Below are positions 45,475 to 62,518 of a stretch of 64,000 nt of DNA, one piece after another. The stretch spans positions 47,568 through 111,567 of the forward strand of contig CAZNGO010000043.1 in the NCBI GenBank assembly GCA_964572805.1. The letters run 5' to 3'. Source of the DNA: an uncultured Rhizobium sp. GTDB lineage: Bacteria > Pseudomonadota > Alphaproteobacteria > Micropepsales > Micropepsaceae. Every line of letters starts with the position of its first letter. The first letter of the stretch is position 1. A model generated the notes under the pieces. The model did not search any database, was not told the origin of the DNA, and saw only the letters and a program-made list of their open reading frames with translations. Position numbers and translations under genes: made by a program.

Positions 45475-45517
45475 ATGGCTGTCGCCCATATCCACACCGT
45501 CGCCTTCCAGGGCATAG
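45475..45517 (+). pseudogene. comM: comM/yifB 5' fragment (first 14 codons)
   Basis: ATG GCT GTC GCC CAT ATC CAC ACC GTC GCC TTC CAG GGC ATA G encodes MAVAHIHTVAFQGI. The reading frame continues exactly at 49822. Confidence 0.75.
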
Positions 45518-45541
45518 CGGTATTAGGTAGCGGATACAGAA
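45518..45541. repeat. left terminal inverted repeat of the transporter IS
   Basis: CGGTATTAGGTAGCGGATACAGAA. The reverse complement is present at 49797-49820. Confidence 0.9.
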
Positions 45542-45587
45542 GACCTTTTTCTTCTTCCTTCGGGGGTCCGGGGGTAATTTGCGCCCT

Positions 45588-45761
45588 ATGATGAGCCCCC
45601 GCGCAGCCCGGATCGTCTGGACAATCCTAATCATCCTGACGCTATGCGTCGCCTGTCTGTTCCTGGCAGGCGGCAGGCCCATTGCTTGGCCCCAATGGCT
45701 TAAAGCCGGGTGGGTGGTCGTCGTAGGCGGCATCGTCATCTACCAGCTTCGCAACAAATAG
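45588..45761 (+). CDS. small two-TM membrane protein (IS passenger)
   Basis: MMSPRAARIVWTILIILTLCVACLFLAGG...WVVVVGGIVIYQL. The TAG stop abuts the ATG of the next ORF. Confidence 0.45.
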   Translation: MMSPRAARIVWTILIILTLCVACLFLAGGRPIAWPQWLKAGWVVVVGGIVIYQLRNK

Positions 45762-46196
45762 ATGGCTGAGTCCCAAACCGTCACCACGCTGCGCAACAAG
45801 CGCGACGCCATAGCCGCTGCCATCGCCAGCTATGAGCGCCAGCTAGACCAAGCCCGGCACGATTTCACCCATGTCACCGCTGCCCTGGCGATCTTCGAGG
45901 CCCAGGACGAACCAGGCTCTCAAAGGGCCTATGTCGCCCTGCATCGCTTCTTCAAATACGGAGAGGTGGCGGCTATGTGCCGGGCCATGCTGGCGGACGG
46001 TCCCATGACCACGCCAGAACTGACCAAGCGGGTCATGGCCGACAAGGGAATGGACCCGGCAGACCGTGTGCTGGTCCAGACCGTCAATTTCACGGTGCTG
46101 CGGTCCATGCGGGGGATGGCAAAGCGCAAGACCGTCACCCAAGCTCGGAAGCGGGGCCGGTGCATATGGGCTATCGCCTGTCCCCAGAGCGGTTAA
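45762..46196 (+). CDS. coiled-coil plus putative winged-helix protein (IS passenger)
   Basis: N-terminal helix LRNKRDAIAAAIASYERQLDQARHDFTHVTAALAIFE. The C-terminal GPMTTPELTKRVMADKGMDPADRVLVQTVNFTVLRSM is wHTH-like. It resembles a hypothetical family I recall from alphaproteobacterial islands. Confidence 0.55.
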   Translation: MAESQTVTTLRNKRDAIAAAIASYERQLDQARHDFTHVTAALAIFEAQDEPGSQRAYVALHRFFKYGEVAAMCRAMLADGPMTTPELTKRVMADKGMDPADRVLVQTVNFTVLRSMRGMAKRKTVTQARKRGRCIWAIACPQSG

Positions 46197-46426
46197 TTAG
46201 GGCCAACGGGCAAAAAATATAGTCTTATATTTTCAATGGCTTATCGGCCTTTACGCCGCCGATGCCTAGATCTGCCGCTGGATTTTCTAGGATTTGCTCT
46301 GATTTTCGGCCAAGAGTTCCAAGGCCTGCTCGGCCAGCGCTTCGCCGTCGCTATAGCCGTTCTCTTCGCAGATGCGTTGTTTTGGCTTAAAGCCTTGGAA
46401 AACAACTAAGGATAGAATATTTCGCG

Positions 46427-47002
46427 ATGACAACCCTAACCTTGCAGCGCAACACCCTGTCTGCTAGTAGCGGCTCAACAGAATCGCTGCTTCGGGGATA
46501 TTGCTTGTCTGGAAGTAGGGGCGCGGCGCCGACAAGAGCGCGTAGGTTTTTCGCGGGGCTGAAGACATTCTCCGGGTTGAGTGCTGCGGCCGCGCTTTGG
46601 ATCGCGACGGCTGTTTTTGTCGCTTGCCCCGATAAGATCATGGACCTCAGCCAGCTCGCCCCCTCGTTTTTCGGGAGCGATGGCACTGACGTTCTGACCC
46701 ACGCGAATATTCTCGCGATCCTGGTGATCGCTGACATCTTCATCGCCACGATTGTTGTTGGCGACGAAGGAATGCGTCACGTGGTTTTCTCGCGAATCGG
46801 GTTTGGGATTTCCTTCGTTTGCATCGCAGCATTTCTGCTGGCTGACTTTTTTGGACTGCGCCAGCTTCGCCCGATGTTGGACCACAACGGGGCTCAATAT
46901 TTGCTCGCGGCGCTTGTTCTTATCTGCATTCCGCGTGGGCTGTCCTATTGGCGCCCTCAGGGAAAAGCGCAGCCAGTCCGTCATTCTGTCGGAGGGGGTT
47001 AA
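46427..47002 (+). CDS. polytopic membrane protein (IS passenger)
   Basis: About 4 hydrophobic helices. The stop lies 3 nt before the next ATG. The start is uncertain (46427, or an internal ATG near 46640). Confidence 0.45.
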   Translation: MTTLTLQRNTLSASSGSTESLLRGYCLSGSRGAAPTRARRFFAGLKTFSGLSAAAALWIATAVFVACPDKIMDLSQLAPSFFGSDGTDVLTHANILAILVIADIFIATIVVGDEGMRHVVFSRIGFGISFVCIAAFLLADFFGLRQLRPMLDHNGAQYLLAALVLICIPRGLSYWRPQGKAQPVRHSVGGG

Positions 47003-47005
47003 GCT

Positions 47006-47503
47006 ATGCTTTACGTGATAGCCGTCTCCATCGTGGTACTCGCGCTGATTTTCTTTACCTCGCCGAAGCGGTTCAATGTGAAAGCCTCCCGGCCTAGTGG
47101 CGTGCATCGCCATTCGGATCGCTGGTTTATGGCCGGACTTGCCCTGGACGCCAATGGAGCGCCCCTCAACACGGCGGGTAAGTTTATTGGACGCGTCGAT
47201 GGACAGTCGATGAACACCTACGGGATCCCCAGCGGTTCCACTGTCATTGCCAGCTATCTAAAAGATGCCGAGCGCAAACAGGTCAGTCACGGTGACATTC
47301 TCATTGTTGAGGATGCGCATCCGCATGGCAAAGCCTCTGAATATTGTCTCCGCAGGGTAGAGCGCGTCAAAAATGGCATGATTGAGTACTCGCCTGATAC
47401 TGGCGGGGATCATTGCCCACATGACGATGACAAAGCTGTAGCTATTGTTACGGCTTATGTTCCTCAAAAAAGGCTTCGCGGATTGTTCGAGGCTGCCGCC
47501 TAG
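47006..47503 (+). CDS. membrane-anchored S24 (LexA/signal-peptidase-like) domain protein (IS passenger)
   Basis: N-terminal TM MLYVIAVSIVVLALIFF. Then VDGQSMNTYGIPSGSTVIA...GDILIVED...RRVERVKNGMIEYSPD...AVAIVTAYV, which matches the S24 fold pattern. Confidence 0.6.
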   Translation: MLYVIAVSIVVLALIFFTSPKRFNVKASRPSGVHRHSDRWFMAGLALDANGAPLNTAGKFIGRVDGQSMNTYGIPSGSTVIASYLKDAERKQVSHGDILIVEDAHPHGKASEYCLRRVERVKNGMIEYSPDTGGDHCPHDDDKAVAIVTAYVPQKRLRGLFEAAA

Positions 47504-47609: not shown

Positions 47610-48587
47610 TTACGCCACGCGCTCTGCCGGGGACCGGCGCTGCCAATACCCTTTCCACTGACGACTGACAGGATGCGTGGCCGCAGCCGTAACGATGGCG
47701 GCAAACTGCTCCCCATTGCTCACCCGGCGGCGATCCTCGCGCCAGTCCATTTCAGCGGCGTAGGATGCCAGATAGGGCCCGGCGATATGATGGTGCGTCC
47801 CGATTTCCGCGCGGCGCAGGCGGCTGAAAAAGCTTTCCGCCATATTGGTCGAGCAATCATCATCCTTGTAGCAGACTGAGTGATTGACGCGCTTGGTGTC
47901 GTACGAGGCATGGAAAGCGTCCCAGTGCGTAGCCTCATCGGCATAGACCGTGCTGCCAGGAGCAATCTTGCCATGCAGCGCCGGAACGGAGGCGGCTTCT
48001 GACTTGGCGGCGAAAGTGATGGTATTGCCGTTGCGCTCGCGCGCCACAATCACCGACTGGCGCTTGCCGGTTTGATTTTCAAGCAAGCGGCGGTCCTTGC
48101 GCGCCGCCTTATGATTTGCGGGCTTCACATAGCCGCCCACATACATGCCATCAATTTCAACATGGCCCGAGACTTTCTTTCCCGCATCTTCCGCCGCCAT
48201 CGCTTCCCGCAGCTTATGAGCCATCACGAAAGCGGTCTTGTATTGAACGTCCAGGTCACGGCTCAGTTGAAGCGCCGAAATGCCCTTTGCACCATTGGCG
48301 AAGATGGCGATGGCCGCGAGAATGTCCCGGATTGAAAGCTGGCGGCTTGAAAAGATCGTGCCGCTCGTGACCGAGAACTCCTTCTTGCAGCCTTTGCATT
48401 TCCAAACTTTGCGCGTCTGAAACCAATACAGGTCCACGCAGCCGCACTTGGGGCAGAAGGCCTCCCCGCCATTGGCAGCGAACCGAACCGCCTTGAAGGC
48501 GTCATAAGCCTCCTGGTCCGACATGCGCAGGACTTGGGCGAGGCTGACGGTCCGGGCGGCGCTGGAAAGGAGAAAGTGCTGGGCCAT
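47610..48587 (-). CDS. IS1595 family (ISXO2-like) transposase
   Basis: N-terminal zinc ribbon CPKCGC...CKGCKK. The DDE-type core has VEIDGMYVGG, VYADEATHW and NMAESFFSRLRR. Confidence 0.92.
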   Translation of the reverse strand: MAQHFLLSSAARTVSLAQVLRMSDQEAYDAFKAVRFAANGGEAFCPKCGCVDLYWFQTRKVWKCKGCKKEFSVTSGTIFSSRQLSIRDILAAIAIFANGAKGISALQLSRDLDVQYKTAFVMAHKLREAMAAEDAGKKVSGHVEIDGMYVGGYVKPANHKAARKDRRLLENQTGKRQSVIVARERNGNTITFAAKSEAASVPALHGKIAPGSTVYADEATHWDAFHASYDTKRVNHSVCYKDDDCSTNMAESFFSRLRRAEIGTHHHIAGPYLASYAAEMDWREDRRRVSNGEQFAAIVTAAATHPVSRQWKGYWQRRSPAERVA

Positions 48588-48690: not shown

Positions 48691-48945
48691 ATGCCGAAAA
48701 ACACCTATAAATCCAATGCCTTAACCCAGGAATATGAGGAAAAGGCCAAGAATCTGCTCAAGGGGGAATTGAAACGCAGGGGCGTGACCTATGCCCAGCT
48801 AGTCGAAAAGCTGGGGGCATTGGGTGTGCAAGAGACAGAACGCAACCTTGCCAATAAGATCAGCCGGGGCGGGTTTACGGGGGCGTTTCTAATCCAATGT
48901 CTCGACGCTATTGGCTGCCGCTCATTGCAGTTGTCGGACTCCTAG
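48691..48945 (+). CDS. DUF6471-like small HTH protein (IS passenger)
   Basis: KGELKRRGVTYAQLVEKLGALGVQETERNLANKISRGGFTGAFLIQCLDAIG. It is divergent from the transposase. Confidence 0.6.
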   Translation: MPKNTYKSNALTQEYEEKAKNLLKGELKRRGVTYAQLVEKLGALGVQETERNLANKISRGGFTGAFLIQCLDAIGCRSLQLSDS

Positions 48946-49742
48946 GGAGCGTACAGGCTCAGCCCGTACGTCAAAGCCCCAGCGGCCAAGCCGCCGCTCA
49001 GCAACGCAAGACCAAGCCAGCCGCCGACGCGCCACCAAGCATCCCTGTAACCGTCCAGAACGACATCCATGGCATCGCCAGCGCGCTGAAAACAGCGAAC
49101 GATAAGCAACCATCCAGCACAGACGAGCGCAATGCCAAGGCCCAGGAAGATGTAGCGTGGTGGACGCCCTGGCTGCTTTTGGTCGCCTTTCTGGAAATGC
49201 TCGTTACTGGCGCTGGCGTATGGCTGGTTTATCGCACTCTTTACCATACCAAGCGTGCAGCAGATGCCGCCCACGCAACAGTTCAATCCATGGAGTCTAC
49301 CTCCGCGCGGCAGTTGAGGGCTTACGTTCACGTTTGGAGATGCACCATGTCCATTTCTGAAGGTGCTGCCCACGTGAGGGTAAGGCTGGAAAACGCCGGC
49401 TCTACACCCGCTTATAAAGCCAGTGGATACGCAACAGTATGGGTGGATACTTTCCCCACCCCGCAGAACATTCCCACGACAAAACCCAAACTCGGAACTG
49501 ATATTGGGCCCGGAGGGAAAATGACTATGTGGAGACGAACTCCGATTTCGGATGCAGAAATGAAGCGGGTTACCGAAGGAACTCACGTAATATGGGTCAC
49601 TGGAATACTTGACTATCAAGATGCGTTCAAACAACCCAGACACGTAGACTTTCGTTACTTCCTTGCTGGCTATGAAGTCCCCAAGGCCATGACTGAAAAA
49701 GTCAGATTGAGCCTGTGCGAACAAGGCAACAATTCCGACTAG
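48897..49742 (+). CDS. membrane protein with signal-like N-terminus and one internal TM (IS passenger)
   Basis: MSRRYWLPLIAVVGLLGSVQA..., an internal helix WWTPWLLLVAFLEMLVTGAGVWLVY, and a beta-rich C-terminus. The antisense ORF 48942..49763 looks like a shadow. Confidence 0.5.
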   Translation: MSRRYWLPLIAVVGLLGSVQAQPVRQSPSGQAAAQQRKTKPAADAPPSIPVTVQNDIHGIASALKTANDKQPSSTDERNAKAQEDVAWWTPWLLLVAFLEMLVTGAGVWLVYRTLYHTKRAADAAHATVQSMESTSARQLRAYVHVWRCTMSISEGAAHVRVRLENAGSTPAYKASGYATVWVDTFPTPQNIPTTKPKLGTDIGPGGKMTMWRRTPISDAEMKRVTEGTHVIWVTGILDYQDAFKQPRHVDFRYFLAGYEVPKAMTEKVRLSLCEQGNNSD

Positions 49743-49796: not shown

Positions 49797-49820
49797 TTCT
49801 GTATCCGCTACCTAATACCG
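49797..49820. repeat. right terminal inverted repeat of the transporter IS
   Basis: TTCTGTATCCGCTACCTAATACCG is the exact reverse complement of 45518-45541. Confidence 0.9.
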
Positions 49821-50433
49821 GGGCATAGAAGCGCGTGACGTAGACGTGCAGGTGCATGTCGCCGAGGGCGGCAGCGGCCAGTTCACCATCGTCGGCCTGG
49901 CCGACAAGGCTGTCGCAGAAAGCCGCGAACGGGTGCGTTCGGCGCTGTCGGCCATCGGCCTGGCCATGCCGTTCCAGCGGGTGACGGTCAATCTCGCCCC
50001 CGCAGACCTGCCCAAGGAGGGCAGCCATTACGACCTGCCGATCGCGCTGGGGCTGCTGGCCGCGATGGGCGTGCTGCCCGCCAGCGAAATGGCGAATTAT
50101 GTCGCGCTGGGAGAATTGTCGCTGGATGCGGCGATCACCGCCGTGCCTGGCGTGCTGCCCGCCGCGCTGGCGGCCAGTGAACAGGGGCGCGGCCTGATCT
50201 GCCCGGAAGCCTGCGGGCCGGAAGCGGCCTTCGCCGGCGAGATTGAAATTCTCGCCGCCCCATCTCTGATCGGTCTGGTCAATCACATGAAAGGCGCGAC
50301 GGTGCTGGCCCCGCCTTCGCCAAAAGTGGCTTCGGCGGGCAGGCCCGCCCCTGACCTGCGCGACGTCAAGGGCCAGGAAAGCGCCAAGCGGGCGCTGGAA
50401 ATCACGGCGGCCGGCGGCCACAACCTGCTGATG
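49821..50433 (+). pseudogene. comM: comM/yifB middle fragment (N-terminal domain up to just before Walker A)
   Basis: GIEARDVDVQVHVAEGGSGQFTIVGLADKAVAESRERVRSAL...DLRDVKGQESAKRALEITAAGGHNLLM. ComM similarity ends at 50433. Confidence 0.9.
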
Positions 50434-50453
50434 TTGAGGTCTATATGCCCGGC
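50428..50453 (+). repeat. 26 bp direct repeat, copy 1 (comM/island junction)
   Basis: CTGATGTTGAGGTCTATATGCCCGGC is identical to 57757-57782. Confidence 0.9.
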
Positions 50454-50471
50454 GATAGCCGATGGTCCGAG

Positions 50472-55056: not shown

Positions 55057-55075
55057 GCCGGGCTATATGCCCGGC
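55057..55075. repeat. perfect palindrome containing a third copy of the island-end 13-mer
   Basis: GCCGGGC-TATAT-GCCCGGC. Positions 55063-55075 (CTATATGCCCGGC) equal the 3' half of the 26 bp repeat. Confidence 0.85.
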
Positions 55076-55099
55076 GCTATGCCCGGACCCTATCTAGGC

Positions 55100-57724: not shown

Positions 57725-57756
57725 GCGAATGTCACGAAATTGGTAGGCTCACCTTC

Positions 57757-57782
57757 CTGATGTTGAGGTCTATATGCCCGGC
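57757..57782 (+). repeat. 26 bp direct repeat, copy 2 (boundary between island modules)
   Basis: CTGATGTTGAGGTCTATATGCCCGGC is identical to 50428-50453. Confidence 0.9.
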
Positions 57783-57797
57783 TGCAAACGGAATGGT

Positions 57798-60123: not shown

Positions 60124-61569
60124 TCATTCCGGGCTGCGTTCGTAACCCCGCTTCGGATTCTTTTCTCCATCTACGCGAGGCTTCACGCGCCGCCAGCCGA
60201 GGCGCCTCAGAATACCGCCAATCCTTTTCGCATCGGTTTCCCTCATTTGCAGCTTTTCCAGCCCAATGGCGTCTTTAAGAATTTCGGCAGAGGTCACAAA
60301 CAACAAACCCGGGTTTGCCGCCAAATAGGCTGCGACCAAATCTTCCCACGGTTCCTCGACCGTCCGCGAAGCTTGGATTGCGCGGGCAACCTCCCAGAGG
60401 TTTTCCGGCAAAACTGTGGAGTAGCCGTCGCGATACATCGCCAACGCCTCCGCCCACAATTGCAAACGGTCCCGTTCAAACTCTGTCGGCTTCAAATCTG
60501 TTGTTTCCACCGGCAGGTACCGGCGATTGCCTGTTTTGTCCTGCAAGTAGATCGACTCATTGGTAGTGGCGATAAAGATTCCCCTGCGAGGAAAATCCTT
60601 AACTGCACGACCATAGGGCAGGCGAATGCGATCTGTCTGCCGCGAGTTAAACGCCTTCATCGCGTTCAAATCGGCCCGCGAGGCAACATCTAGTTCCGCC
60701 CATTCAATGATGTTCTTTCCCTGAATCTTTTGAATCGTGTCCTTGCTGCGCACGTCTCCAATATCCGGGTCAGCGTAAAATTCTCCGCCAAGGGTCCGCA
60801 ACATAGCGGACTTGCCCTTGCCCTGAATCTCGCCTTCTAAAACGAGCATAGTGTCAAACTTGCAGCCCGGCTCATATTCGCGCTTGATTGCGCCTACAAG
60901 CGTGATTGACCCAGCGGCGCTAACATACGCGCGTTGCTTCTGTTTCCATTCGCGCTCCTCCTTGGAGTCGCTGTCCTCGTCCTCAGGCGATACAGCGCCA
61001 AAATACACCGCTAAAAAAGTCGGAACCCGCTTAATGCCGTCATGCTTGGGAAGGGATTCGAGAAACTCCCTAAATGGCGCGACCGGATTTTGCTGACAGA
61101 GTGTTTCGACAGCTTCCCAGACATGCTGCTTCGTAAACTCGGCATCGGTATTGAAATGCAAGAAATCGCGGATTTCGATGGCAAGCTTGTCATCCATCGT
61201 TTCGCCGAAATGTGACTTAGACCACGGAACGGAGTGGCCACGAAAGAGATAGTCGCCCGTTGTAATGTCATAGGCGAAACCCCAATCCTGCTTTTCGAGT
61301 AGCAAAAGTGCGTTTGTGTAAGTTGGCCGAATTGAACCATCATCCTCGATACTGACCGAGGGCGGAATAACGAAACCAAGCGTGGTCCGCTTCGCCATTG
61401 CCTTTTGCTTCTTTGATAGCTTTTTTGCGCTTCGCTTTGCTCGATCAATTTCATTGCGGCGTTCGCGCTTCGCTTCGGCCGCTTCCTCAGGTGTAAGGCT
61501 AACCGGAACATCCTCAAAAATGTTCTCGGTTTGATTAGTGTCAGTAATTGCTTTGGTCATTTTCTTCAC
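60124..61569 (-). CDS. VirE-family (virulence-associated protein E) helicase/NTPase
   Basis: Walker A LEGEIQGKGKSAMLRTLG, FIATTNE, RRYLPV. It lies next to a PrimPol gene. Confidence 0.87.
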   Translation of the reverse strand: MKKMTKAITDTNQTENIFEDVPVSLTPEEAAEAKRERRNEIDRAKRSAKKLSKKQKAMAKRTTLGFVIPPSVSIEDDGSIRPTYTNALLLLEKQDWGFAYDITTGDYLFRGHSVPWSKSHFGETMDDKLAIEIRDFLHFNTDAEFTKQHVWEAVETLCQQNPVAPFREFLESLPKHDGIKRVPTFLAVYFGAVSPEDEDSDSKEEREWKQKQRAYVSAAGSITLVGAIKREYEPGCKFDTMLVLEGEIQGKGKSAMLRTLGGEFYADPDIGDVRSKDTIQKIQGKNIIEWAELDVASRADLNAMKAFNSRQTDRIRLPYGRAVKDFPRRGIFIATTNESIYLQDKTGNRRYLPVETTDLKPTEFERDRLQLWAEALAMYRDGYSTVLPENLWEVARAIQASRTVEEPWEDLVAAYLAANPGLLFVTSAEILKDAIGLEKLQMRETDAKRIGGILRRLGWRRVKPRVDGEKNPKRGYERSPE

Positions 61570-62518
61570 ACTGCATTACAAAAGCTCGCGCCCGTTCGAT
61601 TGCGCGAGGCAAATCCGGTCCGGACATGTAGCGCCTGACATCGCGTCCCGGACCTTTGGGCGCGGTATCAATCATCATCCTCAGCGCGGACATGATTGGT
61701 TCATCCGGCGCGTCAACGCCGGACATAAAGAAATAGCGGATTGCGTTTTTGTAGATCGGTTTGTCAAAGCCGCCGAAGCCGGGGCCGTCGCCGATAAGCA
61801 ACGACGCCGGATCGTGTTCGCGCTTAACGCGCGGGCCGCGACTAACTGGCGATGATGTACGCGGGCGCTCTGACGTTTCGCCGTCCAAATCCTTTTTCGG
61901 AAGGAACTCCCACCATGCAGCGGGGCATTCCGCCAGTTCAACCTCGCCCGGAGCGCAACCGGGAGACCACTGGTAGCGCGGGCCATACGAATGAAGGTTG
62001 CCGGGGATGACCGCGTATCCATGCCACCCACGGACATCAATTTTCGGGTAGCCGGGTAAACCCTGTTGGTTCATCCGGTCATCGCTGCCGGGCGGCGGGC
62101 GAAGCCAGATATGCTCCCCGCCATCAGGACGCCCAGACCTCACCCGCCACGTATTACGCGGCAATGTGCCGAGTACGGATTCAGCCTTTGCAAGAGACGC
62201 GCGACCTTCCTCTCCATCCACATCAATAATGACAACCCCACCATCGCGGCCAGTTAAAATCAGCCAGCCGGGATTGCGCTTGCGGACATGCCATGACGCG
62301 ATGACTTGAGGGCTGGATGACGCCCTGAATTGAAACTTTCCGATTGCTGGCTTTTTTGTTTCCCGGACACCGGGGAAGGGACGCAAGCCGTGCTCTGCAC
62401 CAAGCAACAAGGCCACCGGGAGCGGATGCGGCGCGCGATAACCCGCGCCTGCAATGCGGGGATCGAGGTTTTGAGACACGAGGGCGCGCTCGACGCGCGC
62501 AATGGCTTCGGAGTTCAT
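61541..62518 (-). CDS. bifunctional DNA primase/polymerase (PrimPol, AEP family)
   Basis: GVVIIDVDGEEG (DxD) and VRSGRPDGGEHIWLRPP (sGxGgxH). Confidence 0.83.
   Translation of the reverse strand: MNSEAIARVERALVSQNLDPRIAGAGYRAPHPLPVALLLGAEHGLRPFPGVRETKKPAIGKFQFRASSSPQVIASWHVRKRNPGWLILTGRDGGVVIIDVDGEEGRASLAKAESVLGTLPRNTWRVRSGRPDGGEHIWLRPPPGSDDRMNQQGLPGYPKIDVRGWHGYAVIPGNLHSYGPRYQWSPGCAPGEVELAECPAAWWEFLPKKDLDGETSERPRTSSPVSRGPRVKREHDPASLLIGDGPGFGGFDKPIYKNAIRYFFMSGVDAPDEPIMSALRMMIDTAPKGPGRDVRRYMSGPDLPRAIERARAFVMQCEENDQSNY

Follow-up and report, generated by a model that had tools for sequence, protein, structure and literature searches.

The window analysed here is the whole of a 64,000-nucleotide stretch from an uncultured Rhizobium sp. 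(GenBank assembly GCA_964572805.1, contig CAZNGO010000043.1, positions 47,568 to 111,567 of the forward strand), and all positions below are counted from its first nucleotide. Four open reading frames (ORF1 to ORF4) lie on the same strand between 45588 and 47503 and form two translationally coupled pairs, as had been noted in a sequence-only reading of this DNA, which gave the same coordinates and the same junctions within each pair. That reading had also placed the genes inside a transposon, and all four are indeed carried by a single insertion sequence (IS), a transporter IS of the IS1595 family of 4,303 bp with inverted repeats (IRs) and an 8-bp target-site duplication. The "left arm" to which they belong is the portion of this element left of the transposase. 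It is very likely that the two-pair architecture also reflects a split into two modules within one IS. Overall, the explanation we favour, and consider probable, is that the first pair (pair 1; ORF1 and ORF2) belongs to the IS chassis and the second (pair 2; ORF3 and ORF4) is a cargo encoding a membrane-tethered, LexA-like switch.

The carrier element and its companion genes

The features of the element are as follows, with transmembrane abbreviated as TM and helix-turn-helix as HTH.

45510-45517: left copy of the 8-bp target-site duplication GGGCATAG, within comM codons Q-G-I-E
45518-45541: left terminal IR CGGTATTAGGTAGCGGATACAGAA, complementary to 49797-49820
45588-45761 (ATG, 57 amino acids) or 45579-45761 (TTG, 60 amino acids), + strand: ORF1, 2-TM peptide
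45762-46196, + strand: ORF2, 144-amino-acid protein with a long (coiled-coil) helix and a winged helix
46197-46426: spacer of 230 nt between ORF2 and ORF3, the presumed location of the cargo promoter
46427-47002, + strand: ORF3, 191-amino-acid polytopic (4-TM) membrane protein
47006-47503, + strand: ORF4, 165-amino-acid S24-fold protein with an N-terminal TM anchor
47610-48587, - strand: IS1595-family transposase (Zn ribbon and DDE_Tnp_IS1595), convergent with ORF4
48691-48945, + strand: DUF6471 HTH protein of the IS chassis (Pfam 7.2e-31), divergent from the transposase
48897-49742, + strand: 281-amino-acid membrane protein of the opposite IS arm, N-terminal half semi-conserved and the rest variable
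49797-49828: right IR (49797-49820) and right copy of the 8-bp duplication (49821-49828)

The carrier ends in perfect 24-nt IRs (100% complementary), and the direct 8-bp duplication is present on both of its flanks. When the flanks are joined without the IS, the N-terminus of comM is restored (MAVAHIHTVAFQGIE followed by ARDVDVQVHV) and the join reads through, with the insertion point at about codon 14. The element occurs once in the 3.29-Mb draft genome, and its G+C fraction is 0.54-0.61 against 0.62-0.70 across the 4 kb upstream. Its transposase matches PF12762 (1.7e-40), PF12760 (8.3e-11) and NF033547 (4.1e-45) and has thousands of relatives, at identities of up to 89%. An ARAGORN call of a tRNA-His (anticodon 'atg', 48463-48543, - strand) falls inside the transposase ORF and is probably a false positive. 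Six further ORFs lie within the IS, among them the DUF6471 protein, which is 81-93% identical in the closest elements, and the 281-amino-acid membrane protein, whose first 154 residues are 49% identical to a protein of the related locus L011 and which is weakly similar to one of L007; the latter protein has no family match in Pfam or PHROGs.

Related elements were sampled as 80 loci from species-representative genomes, almost all of them Alphaproteobacteria. The exact 24-nt IR has no match in the species-representative genomes, and elements were delimited instead by a 14-nt IR core, CGGYATTAKGTAGC, with mismatches allowed, which is common to 61 further elements (62 with that of the window). 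The related elements are 3.0-6.8 kb long, with 8-bp duplications that are perfect in 59 and matching at 7/8 positions in two. Clustering of the ORFs of all 62 elements recovered the transposase in 62/62, an ORF2 homologue in 59/62 and the DUF6471 BLAST cluster in 31/62; a separate cluster of small proteins, judged by eye only to be of the Xre HTH type, is found in 16 other elements, and about 205 ORFs are singletons. The contexts of the closest transposase relatives share one architecture, which has, in one arm, a variable membrane protein and the DUF6471 gene, divergent from the transposase, and in the other the transposase, a variable slot and a gene for 139-145 amino acids that is read inward from the far end of the IS.

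It is at this far end that ORF2 lies, and ORF2 is a core companion gene of the IS family, part of the chassis and not of the cargo. The four ORFs had been taken as one cargo unit, a view that does not hold: pair 1 belongs to the chassis and pair 2 is a separate cargo. ORF2 is 75% identical to its homologues in L007 and L012. Its model (pLDDT 88.3) shows a helix of 48 residues (2-49) and then a winged HTH, in agreement with the initial description as a coiled-coil and winged-HTH-like protein, and Foldseek retrieves winged helices of the ArsR, PadR, Fur and Z-alpha types with probabilities of 0.99-1.0 and E-values of only about 1e-2. Two members of the ORF2 family have a HARE-HTH match, and no Pfam family covers the whole protein; neither ORF1, ORF2 nor ORF3 finds anything in Pfam, NCBIfam, PADLOC or PHROGs. 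Because the gene is near-ubiquitous and its position fixed, ORF2 probably acts on DNA at the IS ends or the target: the long helix would dimerise and the winged helix would bind, so as to regulate or direct transposition.

ORF1, whose TAG runs straight into the ATG of ORF2, is an addition peculiar to the closest IS sub-lineage. In most elements the ORF2 homologue is the first ORF, starting about 68 nt in from the end of the IS, and a 2-TM peptide at this position is limited, among the elements examined, to the window, L007 and L012. Conservation at the protein level, which had been asked of all four ORFs, thus extends to ORF2, ORF3 and ORF4, which all have homologues and so are no chance ORFs, but not to ORF1: its counterparts in L007 and L012 (72 and 56 amino acids) share its position and have no detectable sequence similarity to it.

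The carrier itself is of an already known kind and is assigned to the IS1595 transporter ISs, ISNha5 group, on the strength of a cited description. It presents ISNha5 as an IS1595-family transporter IS with regulator-like passengers (Siguier, Gagnevin & Chandler 2009, as cited in PMC11891212). Transporter ISs of this group likewise have an IS1595 DDE transposase with a Zn ribbon, terminal IRs, an 8-bp duplication and passengers that include transcription-regulator-like proteins, and likewise occur in Alphaproteobacteria. Compared with the group as described, the lineage of the window strongly prefers comM and carries the ORF3-ORF4 pair, which was not seen in the 80 related loci.

The second gene pair: family, contexts and fold

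The TAA of ORF3 ends 3 nt before the ATG of ORF4, which has a strong ribosome-binding site (GGAGGGGG) 7 nt upstream. The preceding spacer (46197-46426) has no sigma-70-like match on the + strand, and the small ORFs in it have no family match. ORF3 had been called a four-TM protein; by hydropathy three segments are clear and a fourth is weaker, and its homologues show four. Its conserved motifs are WI..(V)AFP in TM1, D(I/L)xI in TM2 and PR(A/G)xSY..P after TM4. An antisense ORF of 212 amino acids (46475-47113, - strand), which overlaps ORF3 and the start of ORF4, is preferred by a gene picker based on third-codon-position G+C (GC3), and automatic annotation could pick the wrong strand here. It was rejected: homology and synteny favour ORF3 on the + strand, and the antisense translation is rich in Arg, Asn and Asp and has no support.

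Relatives of the pair are thinly spread. A word-indexed protein search with ORF3 and ORF4 returned self-matches only, no relative of either turned up when 60 genomes from the same genus or class were searched in six frames, and no relative of ORF4 occurs among phage records. A plasmid collection yielded one replicon with an ORF4 relative, a 2.8-Mb Rhizobium record. An exhaustive HMMER search of 1.84 billion proteins with ORF4 gave 60 cluster representatives at E<=1e-3, 18 of them at <=1e-10; these relatives are mostly 145-190 amino acids long and align over most of their length, including the anchor. No Pfam (above threshold), NCBIfam, PADLOC or PHROG family covers ORF3 or ORF4, and no paper was found on DUF6471 or on a module of a 4-TM and an S24-like protein. 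The statement that the four genes match no named defence system agrees with PADLOC-DB 2.0, in which no family is reached at E<=1 by any of ORF1 to ORF4.

Genomic contexts were collected, protein by protein, for 11 distinct members of the ORF4 family. Co-occurrence of the two genes, proposed as a check at the outset, was seen in nine of the 11: there the S24-like gene directly follows an ORF3 homologue, with a spacing that ranges from an overlap of up to 4 nt to a gap of up to 62 nt. The ORF3 homologues are 25-41% identical, with BLAST E-values down to 1e-35 among them. In a tenth context (L016) the upstream side is cut by the contig end. Outside the window, the contexts include the following.

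L017: IS1595 element, same slot and orientation, comM GGAATTCC site
L016: IS1595 element, same slot and orientation
L013: adjoining a type I restriction-modification system
L128:464-5818: within phage-tail or gene-transfer-agent-like genes (DUF2460, Phage_BR0599, NlpC/P60)
L136: between ParE-like and HicA toxin genes
L130 (2958-3202, 4639-6198): just upstream of an intact comM
L134: among ordinary genes
L133: on a 2.8-Mb replicon of a cultured Rhizobium

Pair 2 is thus a conserved, mobile and patchily distributed two-gene unit, often found in accessory DNA, and within the IS it is an exchangeable cargo, its slot being flanked by the transposase and the companion gene. Outside the element of the window the two pairs largely go separate ways, with ORF2 found without pair 2, and pair 2 without pair 1 in at least seven non-IS contexts, in which there is no IS1595 transposase or IR core. 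The sequence-only reading had itself named such a separation of the pairs as a ground for refuting its proposal.

Some of these loci have further features. In L128 an Xre-HTH/RES pair is found two genes downstream of the 4-TM and S24-like genes, and the two pairs have the look of morons. Further upstream in L130 are two short duplicated fragments of comM (residues ~90-131 and ~166-197), with no transposase and no IR core at the locus, and the arrangement is possibly the scar of an older insertion. The S24-like gene of L014:3898-7717, which has no partner, adjoins a Trypco2-domain protein, a 536-amino-acid protein, an AAA ATPase and a 963-amino-acid protein, a cluster that looks defence-type and is uncharacterised.

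The suggestion that ORF4 is a membrane-anchored protein with an S24 fold is borne out. An AlphaFold2 model built with an alignment of 52 relatives (pLDDT 92.9, pTM 0.85) has a TM helix (residues 2-18) followed by a strand (21-26) and a beta-rich domain. In Foldseek, PDB ranks 1-33, with a probability of 1.0 throughout, are all S24 domains of LexA, UmuD or the lambda-186 repressor (CI-type), the best being 1jhe_A (E 1.2e-4), with TM-scores on the target of up to 0.69, and the top matches in BFVD are phage repressors of the LexA/CI type. Similarly, when hhalign is run with a LexA alignment drawn from 30 related genomes, ORF4 matches at a probability of 95.4% (E 1.8e-8), with Ser68 on LexA Ser119. 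Against Pfam PF00717 (Peptidase_S24) ORF4 scores 19.6 bits, below the cut-off of 23.3, and four of the 52 relatives reach E<0.01; other library signals are sub-threshold S24 or UmuD matches only. No HTH family is matched in Pfam or NCBIfam, and residues 2-18 are occupied by the TM helix.

The nucleophile proposed from the GQSM motif is kept throughout the family: Ser68 is present in all 52 relatives and Gly66 in 51, and HMMER aligns the G-x-S-M around Ser68 with the GDSM motif of UmuD. The same holds for the remark that LRRV is read where VKRL would be expected. Arg116 is invariant (52/52) on a strand of the form [YFL]-[RC]-L-R-x-[VI], and no conserved Lys exists among the 52 sequences. In a gapless register, EVTVKRL/EYCLRRV (F-T-V-K-K-L in UmuD), Arg116 falls on the catalytic Lys. 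In the hhalign register LexA Lys156 falls on Tyr113 and Arg116 on Lys159, and HMMER against UmuD gives a third; these two are shifted by 3 and 5 residues from the gapless one. We infer that the gapless register is to be preferred, because both the hydrophobic pattern (i, i+2, i+5) and the spacing to the hairpin turn are preserved in it, and Arg116 likely replaces the catalytic Lys. Whichever register is taken, the aligned sequences indicate that the family does not conserve a Ser/Lys dyad.

A motif conserved in the family, P20-x4-V-[H/K]-A27-[A/S/G]-R, lies immediately C-terminal of the anchor. Among the 52 sequences P20 is kept in 50, V25 in 34, H26 in 37 (Lys in the protein of the window), A27 in 48 (Cys in two, as in UmuD) and R29 in 33, while position 28 is Ala, Ser or Gly in 47 (33, 11 and 3, respectively). 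The motif appears to resemble the cleavage sites of LexA (V-A-A/G, the slash marking the bond) and UmuD (C/G), and one hhalign setting aligns VKASRP of ORF4 with VAAGEP of LexA. The top four PDB matches comprise a quadruple mutant of LexA, LexA bound to RecA (two structures) and chain B of 1jhh, all of which we take to be in the cleavable or RecA-bound conformation. In 47 of the 52 members the TM helix begins near residue 2; the net charge is about 0 before it and +2.3 over the 15 residues that follow. Under the positive-inside rule such a bias predicts that the S24 domain is cytoplasmic (N-out/C-in), unlike that of signal peptidases.

Possible roles of the membrane protein and its tethered partner

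ORF4 has the fold of the C-terminal domains of LexA, UmuD and lambda CI (MEROPS S24, clan SF) and shares with them the G-x-S-M motif, and its small-residue pair likewise lies N-terminal of the core, as do the Ala84-Gly85 site of LexA and the Cys24-Gly25 site of UmuD. However, it has a membrane anchor where LexA and CI have a DNA-binding domain. Moreover, its family is shorter (150-175 amino acids), has Arg at the expected Lys, is usually paired with a 4-TM protein and falls below the Pfam S24 threshold. On this view the cargo pair presents a LexA-like fold of clan SF in a new architecture with an altered dyad.

In the favoured explanation, ORF4 would be a single-pass anchored autopeptidase that takes its own juxtamembrane segment as the substrate strand. 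The strand after the anchor, V-[H/K]-Ala27 followed by [Ala/Ser/Gly]-Arg, would lie in the active-site cleft much as the cleavage-site region of LexA does. Upon a signal, Ser68 would attack the bond at Ala27, and the cut would release a domain of about 138 amino acids from the membrane and so change the state of the 4-TM partner. The outcome would be a one-shot membrane switch, as in abortive-infection, exclusion or addiction modules. With Arg116 in place of Lys, cleavage might be slow or activator-dependent, or the domain might be non-cutting. The parts of this proposal differ in strength: self-cleavage of ORF4 at Ala27, suggested by its motifs, is a rather doubtful step, and that pair 2 is a conflict or addiction module is a tentative idea, somewhat short of an even chance. 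A role in defence or exclusion is plausible, the neighbourhood of the pair being what points to it.

A functional analogy is offered by RexA/RexB of phage lambda, a two-gene exclusion system with a small polytopic membrane effector. Both systems would set a 4-TM protein of about 150-190 amino acids beside a cytoplasmic partner, on a mobile element and among defence or addiction genes. Pair 2 differs, however, in its reversed gene order and in having a tethered S24-fold protein as the partner, and no relation in sequence or fold is claimed. If the switch exists as proposed, it would extend the self-cleavage principle of LexA and UmuD from soluble repressors to a membrane-anchored two-gene module, and would raise the enzymological question of whether Ser/Arg can replace Ser/Lys in clan SF.

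Several points weigh against this explanation. The role assigned to the 4-TM partner is wholly inferred. Three methods place the LexA Lys in three different registers, and Arg is a poor general base, so that proteolysis may have been lost. A second, weaker candidate site exists at Ala43-Gly44. The S24-like member of L014/L015 has no 4-TM partner, and the contexts number only 11, with several on short contigs and two among ordinary housekeeping genes. Additionally, PHROGs and PADLOC contain nothing that bears on the role of pair 2, which has no homologue of known function.

The alternative that survives best is that pair 2 forms a non-catalytic membrane complex, in which the S24 fold, its peptidase activity lost, would bind or scaffold the 4-TM protein (e.g. 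in channel or transporter regulation) and no cleavage takes place. The absence of a conserved Lys from the 52 sequences, the invariance of Arg116 and the weak Peptidase_S24 scores of ORF4 and its relatives are all as this alternative would have it. However, the near-complete retention of Ser68 and Gly66 is hard to explain without chemistry at the site, and a LexA-like small-residue pair (Ala followed by Ala, Ser or Gly) is kept right after the anchor. We give it a minority chance.

A more specific form of the favoured explanation makes pair 2 an undescribed conflict system. Some trigger, such as RecA filaments, a product of a phage or a change that the 4-TM protein senses, would set off autoproteolysis at Ala27 through a Ser-Arg pair that is unprecedented in clan SF. 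The domain would then detach, and the 4-TM protein would become membrane-damaging or its inhibition would be relieved. In this version several IS1595 lineages, to go by how far the cargo copies have diverged, carry ORF3-ORF4. As a whole it is unlikely.

That pair 2 serves the transposon, either as a RecA-sensing, damage-responsive control of transposition or in the maintenance of the IS (the latter among the functions first proposed), would fit with three of the 11 sampled members, those of the window, L017 and L016, occupying one and the same slot of IS1595 elements, in a single orientation, and with one more lying beside comM, the favourite target of the IS family. It is nevertheless very unlikely, since none of the 80 related IS loci has the pair, its contexts without the IS1595 transposase or IR core number at least seven, and elsewhere the slot is filled by unrelated cargo.

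Clan SF also contains the S26 peptidases, enzymes with an N-terminal anchor, and ORF4 resembles the type I signal peptidases and TraF-type proteins of this family in being a small fold tethered by one N-terminal TM helix. It could then be a periplasmic protease, with the 4-TM protein as its substrate or as a partner in secretion or pilus biogenesis. Two viral S26/signal-peptidase models at BFVD ranks 4 and 6 and a weak TraV-like match of ORF7 of the same IS (1.1e-4, far below the cut-off) point in this direction. However, S26 domains are periplasmic with Ser/Lys, whereas that of ORF4 is predicted from its charge distribution to be cytoplasmic, signal peptidases are missing from PDB ranks 1-33, where its structural neighbours are all S24, there is no S26 Pfam match, the S26 Lys is likewise absent and no conjugation genes lie nearby. 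A protease of this type is hardly probable here.

Least probable, and largely refuted, is a single system of all four ORFs: these share a strand and are tightly spaced within each pair, and L017 has an ORF2-type gene followed by the ORF3-ORF4 pair, but a 230-nt gap separates the pairs, the ORF2 homologues of the 59/62 elements are not accompanied by pair 2, which in turn is present at non-IS sites that lack pair 1, and L017 has no ORF1 and an ORF2 that is only about 27% identical to that of the window.

What is gained in any case is an architecture and a set of conserved motifs for two protein families outside the curated libraries, together with a companion gene (coiled coil and winged helix) that can be told apart from cargo, which aids the annotation of transporter ISs that target comM. 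Should pair 2 prove inert or housekeeping, the result would be merely a cleaner annotation of an ordinary transporter IS.

Cargo slot, target sites and neighbouring features

The comM-targeting transporter ISs of Alphaproteobacteria have a cargo slot rich in restriction, toxin and other conflict genes. Elsewhere in the sample it holds a Type ISP restriction-modification enzyme, an N6/N4 methylase fused to an Mrr-type nuclease, Fic (twice), PIN, NYN, KilA-N (twice), DUF3800, DUF6731, a DprA-like protein and nested ISs.

The favoured target is comM, with an empty-site join that reads straight through the gene in 23 of the 62 elements. Hot spots lie at residues ~14, ~242-248, ~308-314 (the ELPEF / GAATTC region) and 468, and the site at residue ~14 is used by the elements of the window, L007 and L018 at the identical codons Q-G-I-E. 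A second recurrent target is shared by L039, L053, L055, L057, L066, L075 and L091, of which six have the duplication CATTTCCG or its complement CGGAAATG; the seventh, L057, has a near-variant duplication, CATTTTCG.

Further along the window, a second, "right-arm" copy of the IS was considered and rejected, as the 325-amino-acid ORF at 61541-62518 is unrelated to the transposase. Direct repeats with a GGTCTATATGCCCGGC core lie at 50421-50457, 55060-55079 and 57750-57786. The first is at the end of the comM homology and the next copies follow 4.6 and 7.3 kb on, so that the repeats bracket the CBASS genes and a second cassette. Their position at the comM breakpoint suggests that comM has been interrupted both by the IS and by stacked islands.

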